Below, in pieces: positions 1,826 through 38,891 of a stretch of 39,471 nucleotides of DNA. The translations under genes and the position numbers were made by a program. Numbering within the stretch: the first letter of the stretch is position 1; each line of letters opens with the position of its first letter. The stretch comes from Escherichia phage vB_EcoM_SHAK9454. The notes beneath the pieces were generated by a model, which was not told where the DNA came from, did not search any database, and worked only from the letters and a program-made list of their open reading frames with translations. The stretch is taken from sequence record OR594184. One strand, 5' to 3'.

Positions 1826-1848
1826 ACTTAACTATCACTATAGGGAAG
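1826..1848 (+). promoter_or_regulatory. Phage RNAP promoter (phiOR-like, near right genome end)
   Basis: ACTTAACTATCACTATAGGGAAGA; matches the 11-member consensus TAAACTATCACTATAGG, +1 G at 1843. Confidence 0.8.
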
Positions 1849-2616: not shown

Positions 2617-2809
2617 ATCTCACACTTCAAGAACCTCAAGTCTCCCCATAGGCCCTCTTTCAGTCCAGACCAAAGGCCCTACCCCTACCCGTGCCAGTCT
2701 ATCATAAGGTTGGACAGATGGTCAAGACTTAAGGTCAACGATAGGCTGAGGCTATGGCTTAGGGAAGGACGATAGGTTGGGACTATGGGTCTTCTTTGAG
2801 TCTCTATCT
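2617..2809. repeat. Direct terminal repeat, left-end copy (193 bp); genome left end
   Basis: Second tandem copy, offset exactly 193 bp from the first. Confidence 0.9.
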
Positions 2810-5459: not shown

Positions 5460-5482
5460 ACTTAACTATCACTATAGGACTC
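5460..5482 (+). promoter_or_regulatory. Phage RNAP promoter immediately upstream of the RNA polymerase gene
   Basis: ACTTAACTATCACTATAGGACTC, +1 G at 5477; leader 5477-5551 contains direct repeats AAGTGAAAGAC x2 and GACTTTAAGT x2. Confidence 0.75.
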
Positions 5483-5551: not shown

Positions 5552-8233
5552 ATGAGCGTCATCTCTATTGACAAACACGACTTCTCTGATGTGTCGAACG
5601 CCATTGAGCCGTTTAACCTGCTGGCTGACCACTACGGGCAAGACCTTGCAGTCAAACAGCTTCAGCTTGAGCATGAGGCATACACTGAAGGCGAGCGACG
5701 TTTCATCAAGAACCTTGAGCGGCAGACTGAGCGCGGGGAACTGGCAGACAATCAGGTCGCCAAGCCTTTGATGCAGACTCTGGTCCCTAAGATTGCGCAA
5801 GCCGTCAGGGAGTGGCACGAAGGCCAAGACGGGAAGCTGTCAACCTCTCGTCCGAGTGTAGCGTTCACCATGTTGAGCACTGAAGAGAAGGCCGTAAAGG
5901 AACGATCTCTGCGCATCTCCTGTGAGTCTGCTGCGGTTATCGTACTGAAGGTCATACTCTCCAAGCTGGTCAAGCCTGAAGGGATCCCGATTACACCTAT
6001 GGCCTCAGCGATAGGTCGCACACTTGAGGACGAAATCCGCTTCGGTCGCATCCGTGACAAAGAGAAAGAGCACTTCAAGAAGGCGATAGCTGATAACCTG
6101 AATAAGCGGGCCGGGGCGTCATATAAGAAAGCCTACATGCAAGCGGTCGAGGCGTCCATGCTGGAGCAAGGCCAACTGGAAGATGCGTGGGGGACTTGGA
6201 GTCCTACAGAGGCCGTCCACGTTGGCATCAAGATGCTCGAGATTGTCATCCAGTCAACACAACTGGTCGAGCTTAAGCGGTACGGTGCTGGTAATGCAGC
6301 GGCTGACGTAGAGATGGTCCACCTGTCAGACTTCTGGGTCAAGAAGATGGCACAACGAGGATTCAGCCTTGCGGGTATCGCCCCAGTCTACCAGCCTTGC
6401 GTCGTCCCACCTAAGCCGTGGACTGGTGTCGTAGGTGGTGGGTACTGGGCCAAAGGTCGCAGACCGTTACCATTGATTCGCTTAGGGTCTAAGTCTGCGG
6501 TAGCACGTTATGAAGACGTATACATGCCTGAAGTCTATGACGCTGTGAATATCATCCAGAATACACCTTGGAAAGTGAACAAGAAGGTATTGGACGTGGT
6601 GAACATGGTCGAGAAGCTGAACAACACGCCTATTGATGACATCCCTCAGATGGAACCGCTGAAGCCTGAGGACTATGCTGGTGAAACCGAGGAGGAACTC
6701 AAGGCATGGAAGAAGGCTGCTGCTGGTATCTATCGCCGCGAGAAGGCCAGACAGTCACGCAGATTATCGCTGAACTTTATCGTTAACCAAGCAAACAAGT
6801 TCTCTCAGTTCAAGGCCATCTGGTTCCCGTACAACATGGATTGGCGAGGTCGTGTCTACGCTGTGCCGATGTTCAACCCTCAGGGTAACGACATGCAAAA
6901 GGGTCTTCTGACTCTGGCAGTCGGTAAGCCTATTGGTGCTGATGGTTTCAAATGGCTGAAGGTTCACGGTGCAAACTGCGCGGGTGTCGATAAAGTCACC
7001 TTCGAGGAGCGTATCAAGTGGGTGGAAGATAACCACGACAACATCATGGCTGCTGCCAAGGCACCGATGGATAGCATTGAGTGGTGGGGCAAGTTAGACT
7101 CTCCGTTCTGCTTCCTAGCGTTCTGCTTCGAGTATGCTGGCGTAATGCACCACGGCTTGTCTTACTCCTGCTCGCTGCCGATAGCGTTCGATGGGTCCTG
7201 CTCTGGGATTCAGCACTTCAGCGCTATGCTTCGTGACCACATCGGTGGACATGCAGTAAACCTGACGCCATCCGGTAAGGTCCAAGACATCTACCGCATT
7301 GTGTCTGACCGCATTGAGGAGCAGCTTAAAGTACTGCTGATTAACGGCACTGACAACGAGATGGTCACTCACGAGGATAAGAAAACTGGTGAGATTACCG
7401 AACGTATCAAGCTGGGGACACGAGAGCTGGCCCGTCAGTGGCTGACATACGGTATGTCACGCAAGGTCACTAAGCGTTCAGTCATGACTCTGGCATACGG
7501 GTCGAAAGAGTACGGCTTCGCAGACCAAGTTTACGAGGACATCGTGATGCCAGCGATTGACTCAGGGTCTGGCGCTATGTTCACTGAACCAAGCCAAGCG
7601 TCTCGCTTCATGGCAAAGATGATTTGGGAAGCTGTGAGTGTGACAGTAGTTGCTGCGGTTGACGCGATGAAGTGGCTTCAAGGTGCTGCCAAGCTGCTGG
7701 CTGCTGAAGTGAAGGACAAGAAGACTGGAGAAATCCTGAAGCCTTGCCTTCCGGTACACTGGGTCACACCTGATGGTTTCCCTGTCTGGCAGGAATACCG
7801 CAAGAAGGACACCACTCGTCTGAACCTGATGTTCTTAGGGTCATTCAACCTTCAGCCTACCGTCAACAAAGGCACGAAGAAAGAGCTGGACAAGCACAAG
7901 CAGGAGTCAGGCATTAGCCCGAACTTCGTCCACTCACAAGATGGTAGCCACCTCCGCAAGACTGTAGTCCACACTCACCGAAAGTATGGCGTGATGTCAT
8001 TCGCAGTGATTCACGATAGCTTCGGGACCATCCCGGCTGACGCTGAGTATCTGTTCCGTGGAGTCCGTGAGACGATGGTAGAGACTTACCGCGATAACGA
8101 TGTGCTGCTTGACTTCTACGAGCAGTTTGAATACCAGCTTCACGAGAGCCAGCGCGACAAGTTGCCTGAGCTTCCGAAGAAAGGTAAACTGAATATCGAA
8201 GACATCTTGTCTTCAGACTTTGCATTCGCTTAA
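5552..8233 (+). CDS. Single-subunit DNA-dependent RNA polymerase (T7 gene 1-like)
   Basis: 893 aa; DGSCSGIQHFSAMLRD (motif A), HDSFGT (motif C), C-terminal DFAFA, specificity-loop region TRLNLMFLGSFNLQP. Confidence 0.98.
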   Translation: MSVISIDKHDFSDVSNAIEPFNLLADHYGQDLAVKQLQLEHEAYTEGERRFIKNLERQTERGELADNQVAKPLMQTLVPKIAQAVREWHEGQDGKLSTSRPSVAFTMLSTEEKAVKERSLRISCESAAVIVLKVILSKLVKPEGIPITPMASAIGRTLEDEIRFGRIRDKEKEHFKKAIADNLNKRAGASYKKAYMQAVEASMLEQGQLEDAWGTWSPTEAVHVGIKMLEIVIQSTQLVELKRYGAGNAAADVEMVHLSDFWVKKMAQRGFSLAGIAPVYQPCVVPPKPWTGVVGGGYWAKGRRPLPLIRLGSKSAVARYEDVYMPEVYDAVNIIQNTPWKVNKKVLDVVNMVEKLNNTPIDDIPQMEPLKPEDYAGETEEELKAWKKAAAGIYRREKARQSRRLSLNFIVNQANKFSQFKAIWFPYNMDWRGRVYAVPMFNPQGNDMQKGLLTLAVGKPIGADGFKWLKVHGANCAGVDKVTFEERIKWVEDNHDNIMAAAKAPMDSIEWWGKLDSPFCFLAFCFEYAGVMHHGLSYSCSLPIAFDGSCSGIQHFSAMLRDHIGGHAVNLTPSGKVQDIYRIVSDRIEEQLKVLLINGTDNEMVTHEDKKTGEITERIKLGTRELARQWLTYGMSRKVTKRSVMTLAYGSKEYGFADQVYEDIVMPAIDSGSGAMFTEPSQASRFMAKMIWEAVSVTVVAAVDAMKWLQGAAKLLAAEVKDKKTGEILKPCLPVHWVTPDGFPVWQEYRKKDTTRLNLMFLGSFNLQPTVNKGTKKELDKHKQESGISPNFVHSQDGSHLRKTVVHTHRKYGVMSFAVIHDSFGTIPADAEYLFRGVRETMVETYRDNDVLLDFYEQFEYQLHESQRDKLPELPKKGKLNIEDILSSDFAFA

Positions 8234-8780: not shown

Positions 8781-8803
8781 CCTAAACTATCACTATAGGA
8801 TTA
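8781..8803 (+). promoter_or_regulatory. Phage RNAP promoter (phi1.1-like)
   Basis: CCTAAACTATCACTATAGGATTAG, +1 G at 8798. Confidence 0.8.
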
Positions 8804-10446: not shown

Positions 10447-10469
10447 CCTAAGCTATCACTATAGGACAA
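10447..10469 (+). promoter_or_regulatory. Phage RNAP promoter
   Basis: CCTAAGCTATCACTATAGGACAAC, +1 G at 10464. Confidence 0.75.
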
Positions 10470-10820: not shown

Positions 10821-11294
10821 ATGAACGCACTTGAACAAGAGATTATCATTAAGTTGGTAGATAATAACGAAGGTCGCCCAGATGATTTGAATGGCTGCAG
10901 TATTTTCTGCCATACTGTCCCTTGCTTCCTCTGCCCTGTAAATATCAATGAAAAGATAACCTTAGGTGAAATCCGAGCGATGGACATACGTAAGCCTAAA
11001 CTGGAGAAACCAGAGGTAACTCCTACAGATGACCAACCTTCAACTGAGTCAATCGACGCTGTCCGCAAGCCGTCCCACTATCAGGTATTTGACGGAGTGG
11101 AGTCCATTGAGATTATCGCTCGGTCCATGACTGTCAGCGAGTTCCGTGGGTTCTGCATGGGTAACGTCCTGAAGTATCGACTCCGAGCTGGTAAGAAGTC
11201 AGAGCTGGCGACTATGGAGAAGGACCTGAACAAAGCAGCCTTCTATCAGGAGCTGTTCGACCTACATAAAGGTAAGTGCTATGCTTCCGAGTGA
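10821..11294 (+). CDS. T7 gene 1.7-like protein (nucleotide kinase family), apparently lacking the usual N-terminal segment
   Basis: EIIIKLVDNNEGRPDDLNGC...RAGKKSELA resembles recalled T7 gp1.7; AAGGAG RBS; frame is closed 5 codons upstream of the ATG. Confidence 0.6.
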   Translation: MNALEQEIIIKLVDNNEGRPDDLNGCSIFCHTVPCFLCPVNINEKITLGEIRAMDIRKPKLEKPEVTPTDDQPSTESIDAVRKPSHYQVFDGVESIEIIARSMTVSEFRGFCMGNVLKYRLRAGKKSELATMEKDLNKAAFYQELFDLHKGKCYASE

Positions 11295-11372: not shown

Positions 11373-11531
11373 ATGACTGACGTAGAGAAGAAATACATCG
11401 TGGAACTTGAGGGACGTACCCAGTCCTTCGAGGTTCCGTTGTACGCAAAGTCTCTTGAAGAGGCTACCCTGAAGTCCCAAGAGTATGAGGACGCTGGGTT
11501 TGTGGTCGGACGGATTCGCCCTGAGACCTAA
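11373..11531 (+). CDS. Host RNA polymerase inhibitor (T7 gene 2-like), 52 aa
   Basis: GGAAGGAG then ATG 11373; [14 protein letters not shown]...[10 protein letters not shown] matches recalled T7 Gp2 SFEVPIYAETLDEA...AGFEVTRVRP; below the track cutoff. Confidence 0.75.
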
Positions 11532-11549
11532 ACTATCACTGTAGGACAG
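11527..11549 (+). promoter_or_regulatory. Phage RNAP promoter variant (phi2.5-like), A to G at -3
   Basis: CCTAAACTATCACTGTAGGACAGA. Confidence 0.6.
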
Positions 11550-13625: not shown

Positions 13626-14073
13626 GGTACAGTTCAATCCACGGTCCCGGACCGACGCTATCTTCGTTCACTGTTCGGCTACCAAGCCAGAGATGGACAT
13701 CGGGGTAGAGACCATCCGTATGTGGCACAAGCAGCAAGGCTGGCTGGACGTAGGCTACCACTTTATCATCAAGCGCGATGGTACTGTGGAAGAGGGACGC
13801 CCGGTCAATGTCGTAGGGTCACACGTTAAGGACTGGAACTCACGGTCTGTAGGCGTCTGCCTTGTAGGTGGAATTGACGCTAAGGGCAAGTTTGAAGCTA
13901 ACTTCACTCCGGCCCAGATGAACTCCCTGCGCAACAAGCTGGCTGACCTGAAGGTCATGTATCCTCAGGCAGAAATCAAAGCACATCATGACGTAGCACC
14001 AAAGGCGTGTCCAAGTTTCGACTTGCAACGCTGGCTGTCTACCAATGAACTGGTCACTTCCGACCGAGGCTAA
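13615..14073 (+). CDS. Lysozyme, N-acetylmuramoyl-L-alanine amidase (T7 gene 3.5-like)
   Basis: TDAIFVHCSATKP...GWLDVGYHFIIKRDGTVE...HH.VAPKACPSFDL.RW...ELVTSDRG, near-identical blocks to recalled T7 lysozyme. Confidence 0.95.
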   Translation: MVSKVQFNPRSRTDAIFVHCSATKPEMDIGVETIRMWHKQQGWLDVGYHFIIKRDGTVEEGRPVNVVGSHVKDWNSRSVGVCLVGGIDAKGKFEANFTPAQMNSLRNKLADLKVMYPQAEIKAHHDVAPKACPSFDLQRWLSTNELVTSDRG

Positions 14074-14091
14074 ACTATCACCTTAGAGATG
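14069..14091 (+). promoter_or_regulatory. Divergent phage-promoter-like element followed by a small hairpin
   Basis: TAAACTATCACCTTAGAG shares -17 to -5 with the consensus but differs at -4 to +1; GGGACC-ttag-GGTCCC hairpin at 14091-14106. Confidence 0.35.
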
Positions 14092-14134: not shown

Positions 14135-15838
<1,704 letters not shown>

Positions 15839-20157: not shown

Positions 20158-20180
20158 ACTAAACTATCACTATAGGGACT
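20158..20180 (+). promoter_or_regulatory. Phage RNAP promoter (phi6.5-like)
   Basis: ACTAAACTATCACTATAGGGACTT, +1 G at 20175. Confidence 0.85.
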
Positions 20181-21432: not shown

Positions 21433-23001
21433 ATGGCTGAACGTGAAGGGTTCGCTGCTGAAGGAGCCAAAGCGGTCTATGACCGCCTGAAGAACGGTAG
21501 ACAGCCATATGAGACACGCGCTCAGAATTGTGCTGCTGTCACTATCCCGTCACTGTTTCCTAAGGAGTCCGACAACTCGTCTACTGAGTACACCACTCCG
21601 TGGCAAGCTGTAGGTGCTCGATGTTTGAACAACTTGGCTGCAAAGCTGATGTTGGCATTATTCCCCCAGTCACCGTGGATGCGACTTACAGTCTCCGAAT
21701 ATGAGGCTAAGACCTTGAGTCAGGACTCAGAGGCTGCTGCTCGTGTTGACGAGGGGCTTGCTATGGTCGAGCGTGTGTTGATGGCCTACATGGAGACAAA
21801 CAGTTTCCGTGTGCCATTGTTCGAAGCTCTGAAGCAGCTTATAGTCTCCGGTAACTGTCTGCTCTACATTCCAGAGCCTGAACAGGGAACCTACAGTCCC
21901 ATGCGAATGTACCGCTTAGTGTCTTACGTTGTTCAACGTGATGCGTTCGGTAACATCTTGCAGATTGTGACTCTCGACAAGGTAGCGTTTAGTGCTCTAC
22001 CGGAAGACGTGAAGTCTCAACTCAACGCAGACGACTATGAGCCTGACACCGAGCTGGAAGTGTATACGCACATTTACCGTCAGGACGACGAATATCTACG
22101 CTACGAGGAAGTGGAAGGCATTGAGGTAGCAGGGACCGATGGTTCTTACCCACTGACTGCCTGTCCATACATCCCGGTACGAATGGTTCGACTGGACGGT
22201 GAAGACTATGGTCGCTCTTATTGCGAGGAGTATCTGGGAGACCTGAACTCGCTGGAGACGATTACAGAAGCTATTACCAAAATGGCTAAGGTAGCCTCCA
22301 AGGTGGTGGGCCTCGTTAACCCGAACGGTATCACGCAACCTCGTCGTCTGAACAAGGCGGCTACAGGTGAGTTCGTGGCGGGTCGAGTTGAGGACATCAA
22401 CTTCCTGCAACTGACGAAAGGTCAGGACTTTACGATTGCCAAGTCGGTGGCTGATGCTATCGAGCAACGTTTAGGCTGGGCCTTCCTTCTTAATAGTGCT
22501 GTTCAGCGTAATGCCGAGCGAGTCACTGCTGAAGAGATTCGTTACGTTGCTGGTGAACTGGAGGCGACCTTAGGTGGCGTGTACTCTGTACAGTCACAAG
22601 AGCTTCAGTTACCTATCGTCCGTGTGCTGATGAACCAACTTCAGTCTGCTGGCATGATTCCTGACCTTCCGAAAGAAGCGGTTGAGCCTACGGTATCCAC
22701 TGGTCTGGAAGCGTTAGGTCGGGGTCAGGACTTGGAGAAGCTGACTCAGGCTGTTAACATGATGACAGGTCTTCAGCCGCTATCTCAGGACCCGGACATC
22801 AACTTGCCGACCCTTAAGCTGCGACTGCTGAATGCCTTAGGCATTGATACTGCTGGTCTTCTGCTGACTCAGGACGAGAAGATGCAACGTATTGCTGAAC
22901 AATCCGCTCAAGGAGCTGTGGTCAACGGTGCGTCTGCTGCTGGTGCTAATATGGGCGCTGCTGTAGGTCAGGGAGCTGGTGAGGACATGGCTCAAGCCTA
23001 A
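21433..23001 (+). CDS. Head-tail connector / portal protein (T7 gene 8-like)
   Basis: 522 aa; YETRAQNCA..TIPSLFPK, YRLVSYVVQRDAFGN, RMVRLDGEDYGRSY, AEEIRYVAGELE blocks. Confidence 0.97.
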   Translation: MAEREGFAAEGAKAVYDRLKNGRQPYETRAQNCAAVTIPSLFPKESDNSSTEYTTPWQAVGARCLNNLAAKLMLALFPQSPWMRLTVSEYEAKTLSQDSEAAARVDEGLAMVERVLMAYMETNSFRVPLFEALKQLIVSGNCLLYIPEPEQGTYSPMRMYRLVSYVVQRDAFGNILQIVTLDKVAFSALPEDVKSQLNADDYEPDTELEVYTHIYRQDDEYLRYEEVEGIEVAGTDGSYPLTACPYIPVRMVRLDGEDYGRSYCEEYLGDLNSLETITEAITKMAKVASKVVGLVNPNGITQPRRLNKAATGEFVAGRVEDINFLQLTKGQDFTIAKSVADAIEQRLGWAFLLNSAVQRNAERVTAEEIRYVAGELEATLGGVYSVQSQELQLPIVRVLMNQLQSAGMIPDLPKEAVEPTVSTGLEALGRGQDLEKLTQAVNMMTGLQPLSQDPDINLPTLKLRLLNALGIDTAGLLLTQDEKMQRIAEQSAQGAVVNGASAAGANMGAAVGQGAGEDMAQA

Positions 23002-23019
23002 ACTATCACTATAGGAACT
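22997..23019 (+). promoter_or_regulatory. Phage RNAP promoter (phi9-like)
   Basis: CCTAAACTATCACTATAGGAACTT. Confidence 0.85.
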
Positions 23020-23983: not shown

Positions 23984-24006
23984 ACTAAACTATCACTATA
24001 GGGAGA
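23984..24006 (+). promoter_or_regulatory. Phage RNAP promoter (phi10-like), strongest consensus match
   Basis: ACTAAACTATCACTATAGGGAGACC; initiating GGGAGA as in T7 class III promoters. Confidence 0.9.
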
Positions 24007-28766: not shown

Positions 28767-28789
28767 CCTTAACTATCACTATAGGGACT
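28767..28789 (+). promoter_or_regulatory. Phage RNAP promoter (phi13-like) embedded in a palindrome
   Basis: CCTTAACTATCACTATAGGGACTA flanked by GGGCCTATAG ... CTATAGGCCC. Confidence 0.85.
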
Positions 28790-35100: not shown

Positions 35101-36047
35101 AGGGCTTCCTGTCTGACATCGTGGAGCATAGCCTGACTGGTAGTAAGCGTAAGTTCGATGACCGCTGGCTGAAGACCGCTGGTATCTCTGACGAGCAGTG
35201 GAAGGGCATTAAGTCCCTAATCCGTGAGTCAGTGACTCGTGGTCCAGACGGGAAGTACACCATCAAGGATAAGAAGGCGTTCAGTCAGGACCCAAGGGCT
35301 ATGGACCTGTGGCGTATGGGTGACACCATCGCTGACGAGACGTTACTCCGGCCTCATAAGCTGTCAAACATGGACGCCAAGGCTTATGGTCCTCTCGCTA
35401 AGACTGTCCTTCAGTTTAAGAACTTCGTCATCAAGTCTATCAATGGGAGAACCATGCGAACCTTCTATAACGCCACGAAGAACAACAGAGCGATTGACGC
35501 TGCACTGTCGACCGTGATGTCTATGGGTCTGGCTGGAATGTACTACATGGCTCAGGCGCACATAAAGGCTTACGCTATGCAGGACGGTCGTGACCGAGAG
35601 TATCTGAAGCAAGCCCTTAACCCAACAATGATTGGCTATGCGGCGCTGTCCCGTAGCTCCCACTTAGGTGGTCCTCTTGGGGTCGCCAACATTCTGGGAG
35701 GCATCGCTGGATATGAGGACACTAAGATGCTCCGCTCGTCAATCCTTCCGCGATCACCTACCGAGAAGACGGAGAAGCCAATCGCCTTTGGTGCTGCTTC
35801 CAGTGGTCCGGTAATGAATGTTGTCGGCAACTTCCTTGAGCAGGTCCCGGCTTTCGGCTATGCTGCTAACGTTGGTGCTACGGCTTACAACTTGGCGGGA
35901 TACCTCAAGGCTGATACCCGTGTCAACGAGCGAGACTACATGACCGGGATGTATAACACGTTCCGTGAACTTGTACCGAATGACCCGATTACCCAGAAGT
36001 TGCTGCTTGGAACGTTTGAGGAGCAGGGCATCCACATCAAGGACTAA
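32160..36047 (+). CDS. Internal virion protein D (T7 gene 16-like) with a non-canonical N-terminal domain
   Basis: 1295 aa; from about residue 200 matches recalled T7 gp16 (STWFGFGAATEAEVKNSM, GDIAIMAGTGKTTKD, RPHKLSNMDAKAYG); first ~150 aa lack the SLT motif. Confidence 0.93.
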   Translation: MATRGIRNNNPGNIRVSKDQWEGMTGDDGAFVTFDSPESGVRALGKNLLSYGRQGYDSIEKIINRWAPPNENDTKAYIDSVVAATGIPATQSLDLSDPDTLSSLAQAISFHETGSRYDPEVYQKGVARALNGISPKTPPVSANVFDALTEGLKAKPKVALGENLPTAAGLNIEGQAPEAPNESFGEMFYKATGETMQEQEDRSTWFGFGAATEAEVKNSMVGVAIRAGQTEDSLDVIGDVFNPTRWNNHKWSREELDQIRNAGVLPQYYGVITGGSPQNLTELINLALENQKLDQEKAKAGTGAQLAAGVIGAGVDPLTYVPIAGQVGKGGKLVNKMFTVAAQSGALAGASEIARTSVAGGDAHVAEAILGGALFGGGMTAIADGLGRALGRNTNEFAGPATRLEARETARNVDGQDLSRLPIQEGEQTFSHQGVKFADVPNEPGSVRLEDGSILIGENPLNPKTRKVFDEVIEPERAAAGVNLGGLTEIGLKLLRSENPEIRGVAADLVRSPTGMQSGASGKIGTTASDVFERLRAVDHRFYNDIDDAVTEALKDPYFQTAFWRDSGAFRQDIYQRVSMAIEDGSGNLKAELTPGELKVYDLLKNQFDAKREMMENPAMFGRPDAQSIFPGSRFKGTYVPHVYSKQMKELYIKELGSPEALQEAIKKSWLTSYASRPEVKKRVDEALLEADPTLTPEGLAAAVDKYANDKAYGISHTEQFERSSVMEENINGLVGLENNSFLEARNLFDSDMSIVLPNGQTFSVNNLREWDMDKIVPAYNRRVNGDIAIMAGTGKTTKDMKDLVETLMNKAGDDGKLKGEVSTLRDTLKILTGRARRDGADDAAFATVMRTMTDLSFFAKNAYMGVQNLTEIGGMLARGNVRAMLHGVPIFRDLAFRNKKVGASEIKDLHNVIFGKELDYSIRPSKQDVIDRLRSYSDLGRGTATALGTATYYTGELAVRSPFTKVLNGTTNYLLDAGRQGFLSDIVEHSLTGSKRKFDDRWLKTAGISDEQWKGIKSLIRESVTRGPDGKYTIKDKKAFSQDPRAMDLWRMGDTIADETLLRPHKLSNMDAKAYGPLAKTVLQFKNFVIKSINGRTMRTFYNATKNNRAIDAALSTVMSMGLAGMYYMAQAHIKAYAMQDGRDREYLKQALNPTMIGYAALSRSSHLGGPLGVANILGGIAGYEDTKMLRSSILPRSPTEKTEKPIAFGAASSGPVMNVVGNFLEQVPAFGYAANVGATAYNLAGYLKADTRVNERDYMTGMYNTFRELVPNDPITQKLLLGTFEEQGIHIKD

Positions 36048-36065
36048 ACTATCACTATAGGAAAC
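36043..36065 (+). promoter_or_regulatory. Phage RNAP promoter (phi17-like)
   Basis: ACTAAACTATCACTATAGGAAACT overlapping the gene 16 stop. Confidence 0.85.
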
Positions 36066-38631: not shown

Positions 38632-38891
38632 CGCAGATGGACTTAGAGAAGTTCCTCTTGATGCTTGATACTGAGCGTGCTCGACTTATGCTGCAAGACT
38701 TGCGGGATGACACTAAGCGTTCACCTCAGCTCTACAACGCCATTGAGAAGCTGCTTGCTCGTCACAACTTTGTGATAAGCAAGGTGTCTGTTGACGAGAA
38801 GACGCTGGCTGATATGGAGGCCCTGAACGCAGAGTACGATAAGGTGCTTTCAGCGACTGAGGATAATGACACCGGGTATGGCGTTCAATAA
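38628..38891 (+). CDS. Terminase small subunit (T7 gene 18-like)
   Basis: 87 aa; ATG overlaps the holin stop; position before Rz and the terminase large subunit. Confidence 0.88.
   Translation: MTQMDLEKFLLMLDTERARLMLQDLRDDTKRSPQLYNAIEKLLARHNFVISKVSVDEKTLADMEALNAEYDKVLSATEDNDTGYGVQ

Follow-up and report, generated by a model that had tools for sequence, protein, structure and literature searches.

In T7 RNA polymerase (RNAP), contact of residue R756 with the G of the -9 base pair is documented (PMC8874028, PMC11880802). A direct coupling analysis of 470 RNAPs links residue 756 to promoter positions -10/-9, 748 to -11/-10 and 758 to -8 (Zhu et al. 2025, PMC11880802). A K1F cluster is present in the RNAP network of that study, where Table 2 gives the K1F variant as 754S, 756N and 761V with the promoter ACTAT. 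Temme et al. 2012 (PMC3458549) replaced T7 residues Q744-I761 with the K1F loop and T7 promoter positions -12 to -7 with the K1F bases. The grafted loop in T7 RNAP drives a promoter whose -12 to -8 bases are ACTAT; the pair is active, with 17-fold induction, and orthogonal to the T7, T3 and N4 pairs. Native K1F RNAP and PK1F serve as an orthogonal expression system, and the native enzyme discriminates against MmP1 and VP4 promoters (PMC12218169). The K1F-type pairing of loop and promoter is not new: it has already been described and tested, and it is in use as an orthogonal tool. K1F does not feature in a 2026 report of novel phage RNAPs (PMC13029058), and a search for a structure of a K1F-type RNAP-promoter complex found none; the PDB sequence search matched no chains other than those of T7 RNAP and mitochondrial RNAP.

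The window analysed here is 39,471 nt and represents the entire genome of Escherichia phage vB_EcoM_SHAK9454. Numerous Kayfunavirus records match a 25-kb query from it at 93-94% nt identity over approximately 90% of the query length, and it is collinear with phage K1F (NC_007456) once circularly permuted, which places it in Kayfunavirus (Autographiviridae, Studiervirinae). Compared with K1F itself, HSPs show 73% to 96% identity. The C-terminal part of the tail fibre is unlike that of K1F, and the window lacks the HNH insertion carried by the K1F DNA polymerase gene.

Gene 1 is an 893-aa open reading frame (Table 1). A phmmer comparison with T7 RNAP PDB chains 1aro and 1cez covers residues 1-893 (E=0, 1280 bits), and Pfam domains RNA_pol (PF00940, E=1.5e-106) and RPOL_N (PF14700, E=1.4e-14) are present. 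On the basis of these domains, the full-length homology and the promoter set, the product is a T7-like single-subunit DNA-dependent RNA polymerase. It is 64% identical to T7 RNAP and 99% identical to K1F RNAP; the ten amino acid differences from K1F are all outside the specificity loop.

Table 1. Coordinates of gene 1, its recognition elements and the phage promoters in the window
Feature	Position	Strand	Basis or remark
Gene 1, T7-like single-subunit RNA polymerase, K1F type	5552..8233	+	893-aa ORF; T7 RNAP homology; Pfam
AT-rich recognition loop equivalent, aa 93-102, DGKLSTSRPS (T7 KAKRGKRPT), plus 11-aa insertion	5828..5911	+	Alignments
Specificity loop (beta-hairpin), aa 749-780 = T7 739-770, YRKKDTTRLNLMFLGSFNLQPTVNKGTKKELD	7796..7891	+	Ungapped T7 alignment; identical to K1F
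Peptide TTRLNLMFLGSFNLQP = T7 744-759	7811..7858	+	Translation and gap-free alignment
Codon R756	7817-7819	+	
Codon N758	7823-7825	+	
Codon S764	7841-7843	+	
Codon N766	7847-7849	+	
Codon Q768	7853-7855	+	
Phage promoter (-17 to +6), TSS 1843	1826..1848	+	Consensus match; counterpart of K1F right-end promoter at 38869
Phage promoter, TSS 5477, RNAP start codon 75 nt downstream	5460..5482	+	Consensus match, K1F comparison, outside ORFs
Phage promoter, TSS 8798	8781..8803	+	Consensus match, K1F comparison, outside ORFs
Phage promoter, TSS 10464, G at -12	10447..10469	+	Consensus match, K1F comparison, outside ORFs
Phage promoter, TSS 11544, G at -3	11527..11549	+	Consensus match, K1F comparison, outside ORFs
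Phage promoter variant, TSS 14086, upstream of primase/helicase gene	14069..14091	+	CACCTTAGAG where others have CACTATAGG
Phage promoter, TSS 20175	20158..20180	+	Consensus match, K1F comparison, outside ORFs
Phage promoter, TSS 23014	22997..23019	+	Consensus match, K1F comparison, outside ORFs
Phage promoter, TSS 24001, upstream of major capsid gene	23984..24006	+	Consensus match, K1F comparison, outside ORFs
Phage promoter, TSS 28784	28767..28789	+	Consensus match, K1F comparison, outside ORFs
Phage promoter, TSS 36060, upstream of tail fibre gene	36043..36065	+	Consensus match, K1F comparison, outside ORFs

Alignment of the window RNAP with T7 RNAP is free of gaps beyond approximately T7 residue 505, where window numbering equals the T7 number plus 10. 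Because identity is 64% and the alignment to solved T7 structures is ungapped, residue mapping is unambiguous. The fold, the domain order and the hairpin with R746, N748 and Q758 are as in the T7 RNAP/promoter structures (PDB 1CEZ, 1QLN). These three residues are kept (window R756, N758 and Q768), while T7 Q754 is replaced by Ser (window S764, codon TCA) and T7 R756 by Asn (window N766, codon AAC). Further differences from T7 in the loop are Q744T and I761V. The pairwise alignment thus confirms the residue equivalences proposed in the initial annotation, and its premise that R756 contacts the -9 base pair in T7 agrees with both papers cited above for this contact. The loop, TTRLNLMFLGSFNLQPTV, is the same as that of K1F over T7 positions 739-770, which by sequence places the enzyme in the K1F promoter-specificity class. 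In its loop substitutions (754S/756N/761V) and ACTAT promoter it agrees exactly with the pair built by Temme et al. 2012 and tabulated by Zhu et al. 2025; its closest known counterparts are K1F RNAP and the engineered T7(K1F)/K1FR variants. The T7 class, in which N748/R756/Q758 read CGACT, does not fit, with Asn at 756 and with C-11, T-10 and A-9 in all 11 promoters.

A search of both strands of the window with TAAACTATCAC, allowing at most one mismatch, gave 11 matches, all on the + strand (0.77 expected; maximum of 3 in 100 shuffles). All are outside long ORFs, with the next ORF 32-186 nt downstream; an 8-mer scan allowing one mismatch lacked the stringency to extend this set. The consensus of the 11 intergenic sites is (A/C)CT(A/T)AACTATCACTATAGG. 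When CAC is placed at -7 to -5, positions -17 to -5 read (A/C)CT(A/T)AACTATCAC, and the T7 counterpart is TAATACGACTCAC. The sites match those of K1F one to one, with equal consensus and positions. A-12 is found in 10 of 11, and C-11, T-10, A-9 and T-8 are invariant, which corresponds to the K1F-class ACTAT. The variant upstream of the primase/helicase gene has a comparable K1F variant (CACCTTAGGG) at 10883, and the promoter upstream of the major capsid gene initiates with GGGAGA, like T7 class III promoters.

T7 and window promoters have a common -8 to +2 core, TCACTATAGG. At -12 to -9 every position is different (ACTA in the window, CGAC in T7), as had been noted from the sequence initially, although the two strings then compared (11 nt and 13 nt) were out of register at their 5' ends. 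That comparison also overlooked differences at all of -17, -16, -15 and -14, where T7 has TAAT and the window (A/C)CT(A/T), as well as an altered AT-rich recognition loop. The equivalent of this loop lacks three basic residues compared with T7 (K93D, R96S, K98S), and an 11-aa insertion, TEEKAVKERSL (window aa 110-120), is found downstream of it. Other promoter-contacting positions are also unlike T7 (R215K, E207T, Q239A, S241V). In published molecular dynamics on T7, residues K98, T101, H211 and R215 contact -13 to -11; these positions are partly changed in the window RNAP.

Loop residues and promoter bases were compared in a survey of 94 related loci. The regular expression CAC[TC][ATG][TA]AG gave no coherent promoter set, or a wrong one, in the Kvp1-like (TATTGGG), Dickeya and L043 types, which have other initiation regions. 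The most-repeated 10- or 11-mer recovered the majority of the classes so missed, and in three loci (L030, L040, L080) it matched other repeats. Sites for Dev2, CR8, GW1 and Ro103C3lw come from the CAC-anchored expression or from record annotation. All ten R756 loop classes (T7, F755I, Q754E, L757I, T3, Vibrio N4, Pifdecavirus, two Ghunavirus types and the GW1 type) have C at -9. In the 20 K1F-type loci, T-10 and A-9 are present in 118/118 sites. Tested by class and ignoring phylogeny, residue 756 and base -9 are associated at P=0.038 (Fisher test).

RNAPs of the K11 and KP32 types from Klebsiella phages (Przondovirus) also have Asn at position 756, but combine it with K748 plus K758 or F758 and are only 59% identical to the window RNAP. 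Like K1F, the KP32 type has T-10/A-9, in the promoter GGTAG. K11-type enzymes (K748/N756/K758) have promoters GGGCA or GGACA, with C at -9 despite N756, so that the role of N756 is context dependent.

Within Kayfunavirus, the RNAPs of Cronobacter phage GW1, Escherichia phage Ro103C3lw and Enterobacter phage EcpYZU01 are 85-89% identical to the window RNAP, with the loop TTRLDLMFLGTFRLQPTV and ACCCT promoters. The loop backbone TTRL.LMFLG.F.LQPTV is common to this GW1 type and the K1F type. The GW1 type has the T3-like key residues D748/T754/R756, compared with N748/S754/N756 in the window, and C-10/C-9 in place of T-10/A-9; A-12, C-11 and T-8 are shared. Since within the core the two types differ only at -10/-9, A-12/C-11 are not explained by R756N. 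By this comparison of sequences, -10/-9 are the only K1F-type-specific bases, A-12/C-11 being common to the sister type. The two types also differ in the AT-rich loop and at -16 (C in 117/118 K1F-type sites, T or A in the GW1 type). Over the C-terminal 379 codons, Dev2 (N-N-Q) and GW1 (D-R-Q) show 87 synonymous and 8 nonsynonymous differences, and 6 of the 8 nonsynonymous codons are in the specificity loop (P about 9e-6). This represents a clean natural comparison in one genus, with three loop residues and two promoter bases on a background of purifying selection, and it narrows the K1F-specific portion of the code down to -10/-9.

The alignment and promoter set, the covariation across the family and within the genus, and the published grafts of this exact loop argue strongly that the variant S754/N756/V761, in which R756N is critical together with residue 748, retargets the K1F-like RNAP to ACTAT at -12 to -8. 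Promoter reading by the K1F-type enzyme would rely, as in T7, on the beta-hairpin specificity loop, and the retained R746 and Q758 would correspond to the unchanged C-7 and T-8. In T7, R756 hydrogen-bonds the template G opposite C-9; the window enzyme has Asn at this position. Retargeting to ACTAT is proposed because R756 is replaced by Asn and all 11 promoters carry T-10/A-9, in contrast to A-10/C-9 in T7 and C-10/C-9 in the sister Kayfunaviruses; orthogonality to T7 and T3 promoters would therefore follow. In the native enzyme, we infer that N766 itself would contact the -9/-10 base pairs. N748 is retained though -11/-10 is CT in the window and GA in T7, which implies either that residue 748 reads differently in the N756 context or that other elements contribute. 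The proposal in the initial annotation that the loop substitution is a plausible determinant of a distinct promoter specificity finds support in the K1F-loop graft, which retargets T7 RNAP to ACTAT (PMC3458549).

The contribution of other elements is a serious possibility, if somewhat short of an even one: several elements may jointly set specificity, with R756N by itself neither required nor enough in the native enzyme. This refines and overlaps the loop-variant explanation. In its favour, K11-type enzymes combine N756 with C-9, the K1F and GW1 types do not agree at residue 748, residue 756, base -10 or base -9, nor around the AT-rich loop or at -16, and the T7 contacts to -13 to -11 (K98, T101, H211, R215) are partly changed in the window. 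In addition, the K1F-loop graft as a split sigma fragment is weak and requires M750R (PMC4299498). However, on a T7 scaffold with T7 bases at -17 to -13 the loop graft alone (754S, 756N, 761V) suffices for the promoter switch (PMC3458549), and changes at 748/756/758 only are enough for at least one active pair in the K1F cluster; T7 RNAP altered in this way gave at least one in every cluster but K1E and SP6 (PMC11880802).

That Q754S and not R756N alters specificity is very improbable. Ser is present at 754 in every K1F-type loop examined, in the hairpin and two residues from 756, but residue 754 varies while the promoter stays constant (Q or E with CGACT; Q, D or T with ACCCT; Q or H with GGTAG), and it is neither a base-contacting nor a strongly coupled position (PMC11880802). 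Q754S is therefore unlikely to be the main determinant and is rejected; of the two substitutions originally tied to the promoter, R756N stands, in that 756 tracks -9 in the survey in a context-dependent manner, and Q754S does not. Functionally unlinked, neutral drift of loop and promoters would be in keeping with the few independent lineages and with a class-level P value that ignores phylogeny, but is scarcely credible in view of the K1F-loop graft experiments and published orthogonality data (PMC3458549), the invariance of -10/-9 at all 118 sites, and the concentration of sister-type nonsynonymous changes in the loop against the 87 synonymous ones.

The occurrence in another Kayfunavirus of the K1F loop/promoter pair, an established orthogonal synthetic-biology part, in itself adds nothing new. 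A broader reading, put forward tentatively and on balance doubtful, is that N-N-Q/ACTAT and D-R-Q/ACCCT specificities coexist in Kayfunavirus, with a third in the neighbouring Caroctavirus CR8, and that amino acid divergence of RNAPs that are otherwise almost identical is focused on two recognition modules, each tracking its own promoter sub-site: the specificity loop -10/-9, and the AT-rich loop and its insertion of 8-11 aa, -16. No paper making this case for Kayfunavirus was found, though the data are probably inside the Zhu 2025 dataset. If true, the two-module divergence would suggest that selection has repeatedly favoured transcriptional isolation of co-infecting relatives, or that modules have been exchanged by recombination, and it would point to base-specific recognition of C-16 by an AT-rich loop that has lost basic residues.

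The RNA polymerase (RNAP) ORF matches T7 RNAP with E = 0 and 1280 bits over the whole length and contains the Pfam domains RNA_pol and RPOL_N. This places it in the T7-like single-subunit RNAP family. MAFFT and HMMER alignments are gapless beyond approximately T7 residue 505 (window residue = T7 residue + 10; T7 numbering is used below), so the specificity-loop stretch is the counterpart of T7 744–759 (QTRLNLMFLGQFRLQP). R746, N748 and Q758 are the same as in T7, Q754 is replaced by Ser and R756 by Asn (N766 in the window protein). This is the residue mapping proposed in the initial annotation, and the alignment bears it out. Further changes from T7 are Q744T and I761V. The RefSeq product name for K1F-type gene 1, in the K1F record and several others, is 'N4-like RNA polymerase'. 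The name is misleading because the K1F-type enzyme is a T7-like single-subunit RNAP with full-length identity of 64% to T7 RNAP.

Features of the window, with related sites in K1F and in L040, a T7-like contig of the survey
Feature	Position	Strand	Remarks
RNAP ORF, 893 aa	5552–8233	+	full-length match to T7 RNAP chains 1aro, 1cez
AT-rich recognition loop and insertion	5828–5911		RNAP aa 93–120; DGKLSTSRPS vs T7 KAKRGKRPT
Specificity-loop stretch	7811–7858	+	translation TTRLNLMFLGSFNLQP
Ser codon TCA (T7 Q754)	7841–7843
Asn codon AAC (T7 R756)	7847–7849
Promoter before RNAP gene	5460–5482		TSS 5477; 75 nt upstream of RNAP start 5552
Variant promoter before primase/helicase gene	14069–14091		TSS 14086; upstream half perfect; CACCTTAGAG instead of CACTATAGG
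GTGACTATCAGTCAGG, three near-identical copies	3383, 3700, 4428	−	early region
Terminal-repeat junction	2424–2616 and 2617–2809		two perfect tandem 193-bp copies; match K1F left and right terminal repeats
Tail fibre/tailspike ORF, 726 aa	36112–38292		K1F gene 17 match at N-terminal part only, to ~36746
HNH endonuclease insertion in K1F DNA polymerase gene	K1F 14936–15535		absent from window (18522/18523)
AGGAACCACTGAGTATCATTR, 21-bp unit	L040 198–430		11 tandem copies near left end of contig

The RNAP gene DNA is 96–99% identical to many Kayfunavirus records, and a 25-kb piece of the window shows 93–94% identity to such records across roughly 90% of the piece. Phage K1F (NC_007456) has an RNAP protein 99% identical to the window's, and the two specificity loops are the same. 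These similarities identify the window as a complete K1F-like phage genome. It is circularly permuted relative to linear K1F: the terminase large subunit gene comes first, and the two direct terminal repeat copies adjoin at the junction. The K1F DNA polymerase gene is split by its HNH insertion, unlike that of the window. The remainder of the window tail fibre has no match to the K1F endosialidase, so the host receptor specificity is probably different from K1 capsule.

The motif TAAACTATCAC (≤1 mismatch) has 11 matches in the window, every one on the + strand, against 0.77 expected from shuffled sequences, which reach 3 at most. None of the 11 sites is inside a long ORF; the next ORF begins 32–186 nt downstream of each, and the sites correspond one to one with K1F sites of the same sequences. 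The initial annotation had described a difference from T7 at −12 to −9. The difference is real, but the strings compared there, of 11 and 13 nt, were not in register, and the limit to these positions was incomplete: the anchored matrix displays four more differences at −17 to −14.

Promoter matrices aligned on CAC at −7 to −5, common to the window and T7
Position	−17	−16	−15	−14	−13	−12	−11	−10	−9	−8	−7 to +2
Window	A/C	C (11/11)	T (11/11)	A/T	A	A (10/11)	C	T	A	T	CACTATAGG
T7	T	A	A	T	A	C	G	A	C	T	CACTATAGG

The promoter just 5' of the RNAP gene would imply positive autoregulation. In T7 itself the RNAP gene lacks a T7 promoter directly upstream, whereas a phage-type promoter is found there, as in the window, in K1F, GW1, Ro103C3lw, EcpYZU01, CR8, Pf-10 and phiIBB-PF7A. 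The sequence change in the primase/helicase promoter alters the unwinding and initiation region. K1F has a similar variant (CACCTTAGGG) and GW1-type phages (GW1, Ro103C3lw, EcpYZU01) a variant at the equivalent place, thus the deviation is conserved; this promoter may be weak or differently regulated. The GTGACTATCAGTCAGG copies surfaced in a loose promoter scan and are not phage promoters.

Covariation was surveyed in 80 IMG/VR loci and 14 GenBank phage records (K1F, T7 and 12 others); for each locus the loop was extracted and promoters were found de novo. The tandem repeat of L040 was seen among these loci. In K1F-type loci, 118/118 sites have both T-10 and A-9. C is found at −9 in 10/10 R756 classes and A in 2/3 N756 classes (class-level Fisher test, P = 0.038, phylogeny ignored).

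Loop classes (residues 748/756/758) and promoter bases
Class	Members	−12 to −8
N-R-Q	T7 and F755I, Q754E variants	CGACT
N-R-Q	L757I variant (survey locus L043)	AGACT
D-R-Q	T3, Serratia 2050H2, Pf-10, phiIBB-PF7A, gh-1-like	ACCCT
D-R-A	Vibrio N4	ACCCA
N-N-Q	20 K1F-type loci, 118 sites	ACTAT
K-N-K	K11 type	GGGCA or GGACA
K-N-F	KP32 type	GGTAG

In T7, the hairpin makes major-groove contacts R746:G-7, Q758:A-8, R756:G-9 and N748:−11/−10 (PMC8874028; PMC11880802). Temme et al. 2012 grafted the K1F loop into T7 RNAP in place of Q744–I761 and put K1F bases at −12 to −7 of the T7 promoter; the hybrid polymerase is active, with 17-fold induction, and orthogonal to T7, T3 and N4 pairs (PMC3458549). Enzymatic orthogonality is published for the K1F loop in a T7 scaffold. 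Zhu et al. 2025 list this variant as 754S, 756N, 761V with promoter ACTAT, exactly the window loop substitutions and bases, and define a K1F cluster (PMC11880802). Their direct coupling analysis of 470 RNAPs and 1067 promoters couples 748 with −11/−10, 756 with −10/−9 and 758 with −8, and T7 RNAP changed only at 748/756/758 gives active pairs for all clusters except K1E and SP6 (PMC11880802). The loop has also been used as sigma fragment K1FR, with M750R added (Segall-Shapiro et al. 2014, PMC4299498), and native K1F RNAP with PK1F is in use as an orthogonal expression and mutator system (PMC12218169). The experiment suggested in the initial annotation has, in essence, already been done.

The proposal that R756N determines the specificity is supported by the published graft and by covariation in the family and genus, but not for −12/−11. 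A-12 and C-11 are not attributable to R756N because a sister class with R756 has both; the K1F-type-specific bases within −12 to −9 are −10/−9 only. N756 is no one-to-one code for A-9, since K11-type enzymes pair N756 with C-9, and its reading is dependent on residues 748 and 758. Q754S is unlikely as a main determinant because residue 754 varies freely within promoter classes (Q, E, D, T, H). The window enzyme belongs to the K1F specificity class, where loop identity and promoter bases both agree, and is outside the T7 class because R756 and C-9 are both lacking. The observation is confirmed and its interpretation supported, with refinements on −10/−9, the context of N756, residue 754 and the upstream promoter half. 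The pairing itself is already known, as everything in it is covered by Temme 2012 and Zhu 2025.

In the upstream half, three basic residues of the T7 AT-rich loop are missing from the window RNAP and an 11-aa insertion follows. K1F-type sites have C-16 in 117/118 and an invariant T-15, where T7 is A/T-rich at −17 to −13. In the GW1 type the AT-rich loop is different, the insertion is shorter and −16 is T or A instead of C. Almost half of the amino-acid differences between the two types are in this N-terminal region. The AT-rich loop is remodelled in parallel with upstream promoter divergence, and by this covariation it may be a second recognition module.

Comparison within the genus provides the sharpest evidence for loop-promoter covariation. 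RNAPs of Cronobacter phage GW1, Escherichia phage Ro103C3lw and Enterobacter phage EcpYZU01 are 85–89% identical to that of the window. Their loop is TTRLDLMFLGTFRLQPTV (D748, T754, R756) and their promoters are T(T/A)AAACCCTCACTATAGGA; of the 17 sites, 13 have ACCCT and four ACACT, and all 17 have C-9. Between the K1F and GW1 types the loop differs in three residues and the promoter at −10, −9 and −16; A-12, C-11 and T-8 are common to both. Between Dev2 (N-N-Q) and GW1 (D-R-Q), the C-terminal 379 codons show 87 synonymous and 8 nonsynonymous differences, six of the latter in the loop (748, 750, 754, 756, 765, 766; binomial P ~9e-6). Replacement differences thus cluster in the recognition hairpin, against a background under purifying selection. 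No statement of the within-genus N-N-Q/D-R-Q switch or of the parallel AT-rich-loop/−16 change was found in the searchable literature; both are small extensions, probably implicit in the Zhu dataset. In Citrobacter phage CR8 the loop is TTRIKLMFMGV-QYRPT, shorter by one residue when aligned, and the promoter is AAGGAAGGTACACTATAGG. The GW1-type and CR8 loops, with their matching promoters, differ from those of the window, so promoter specificity has switched several times among its near neighbours.
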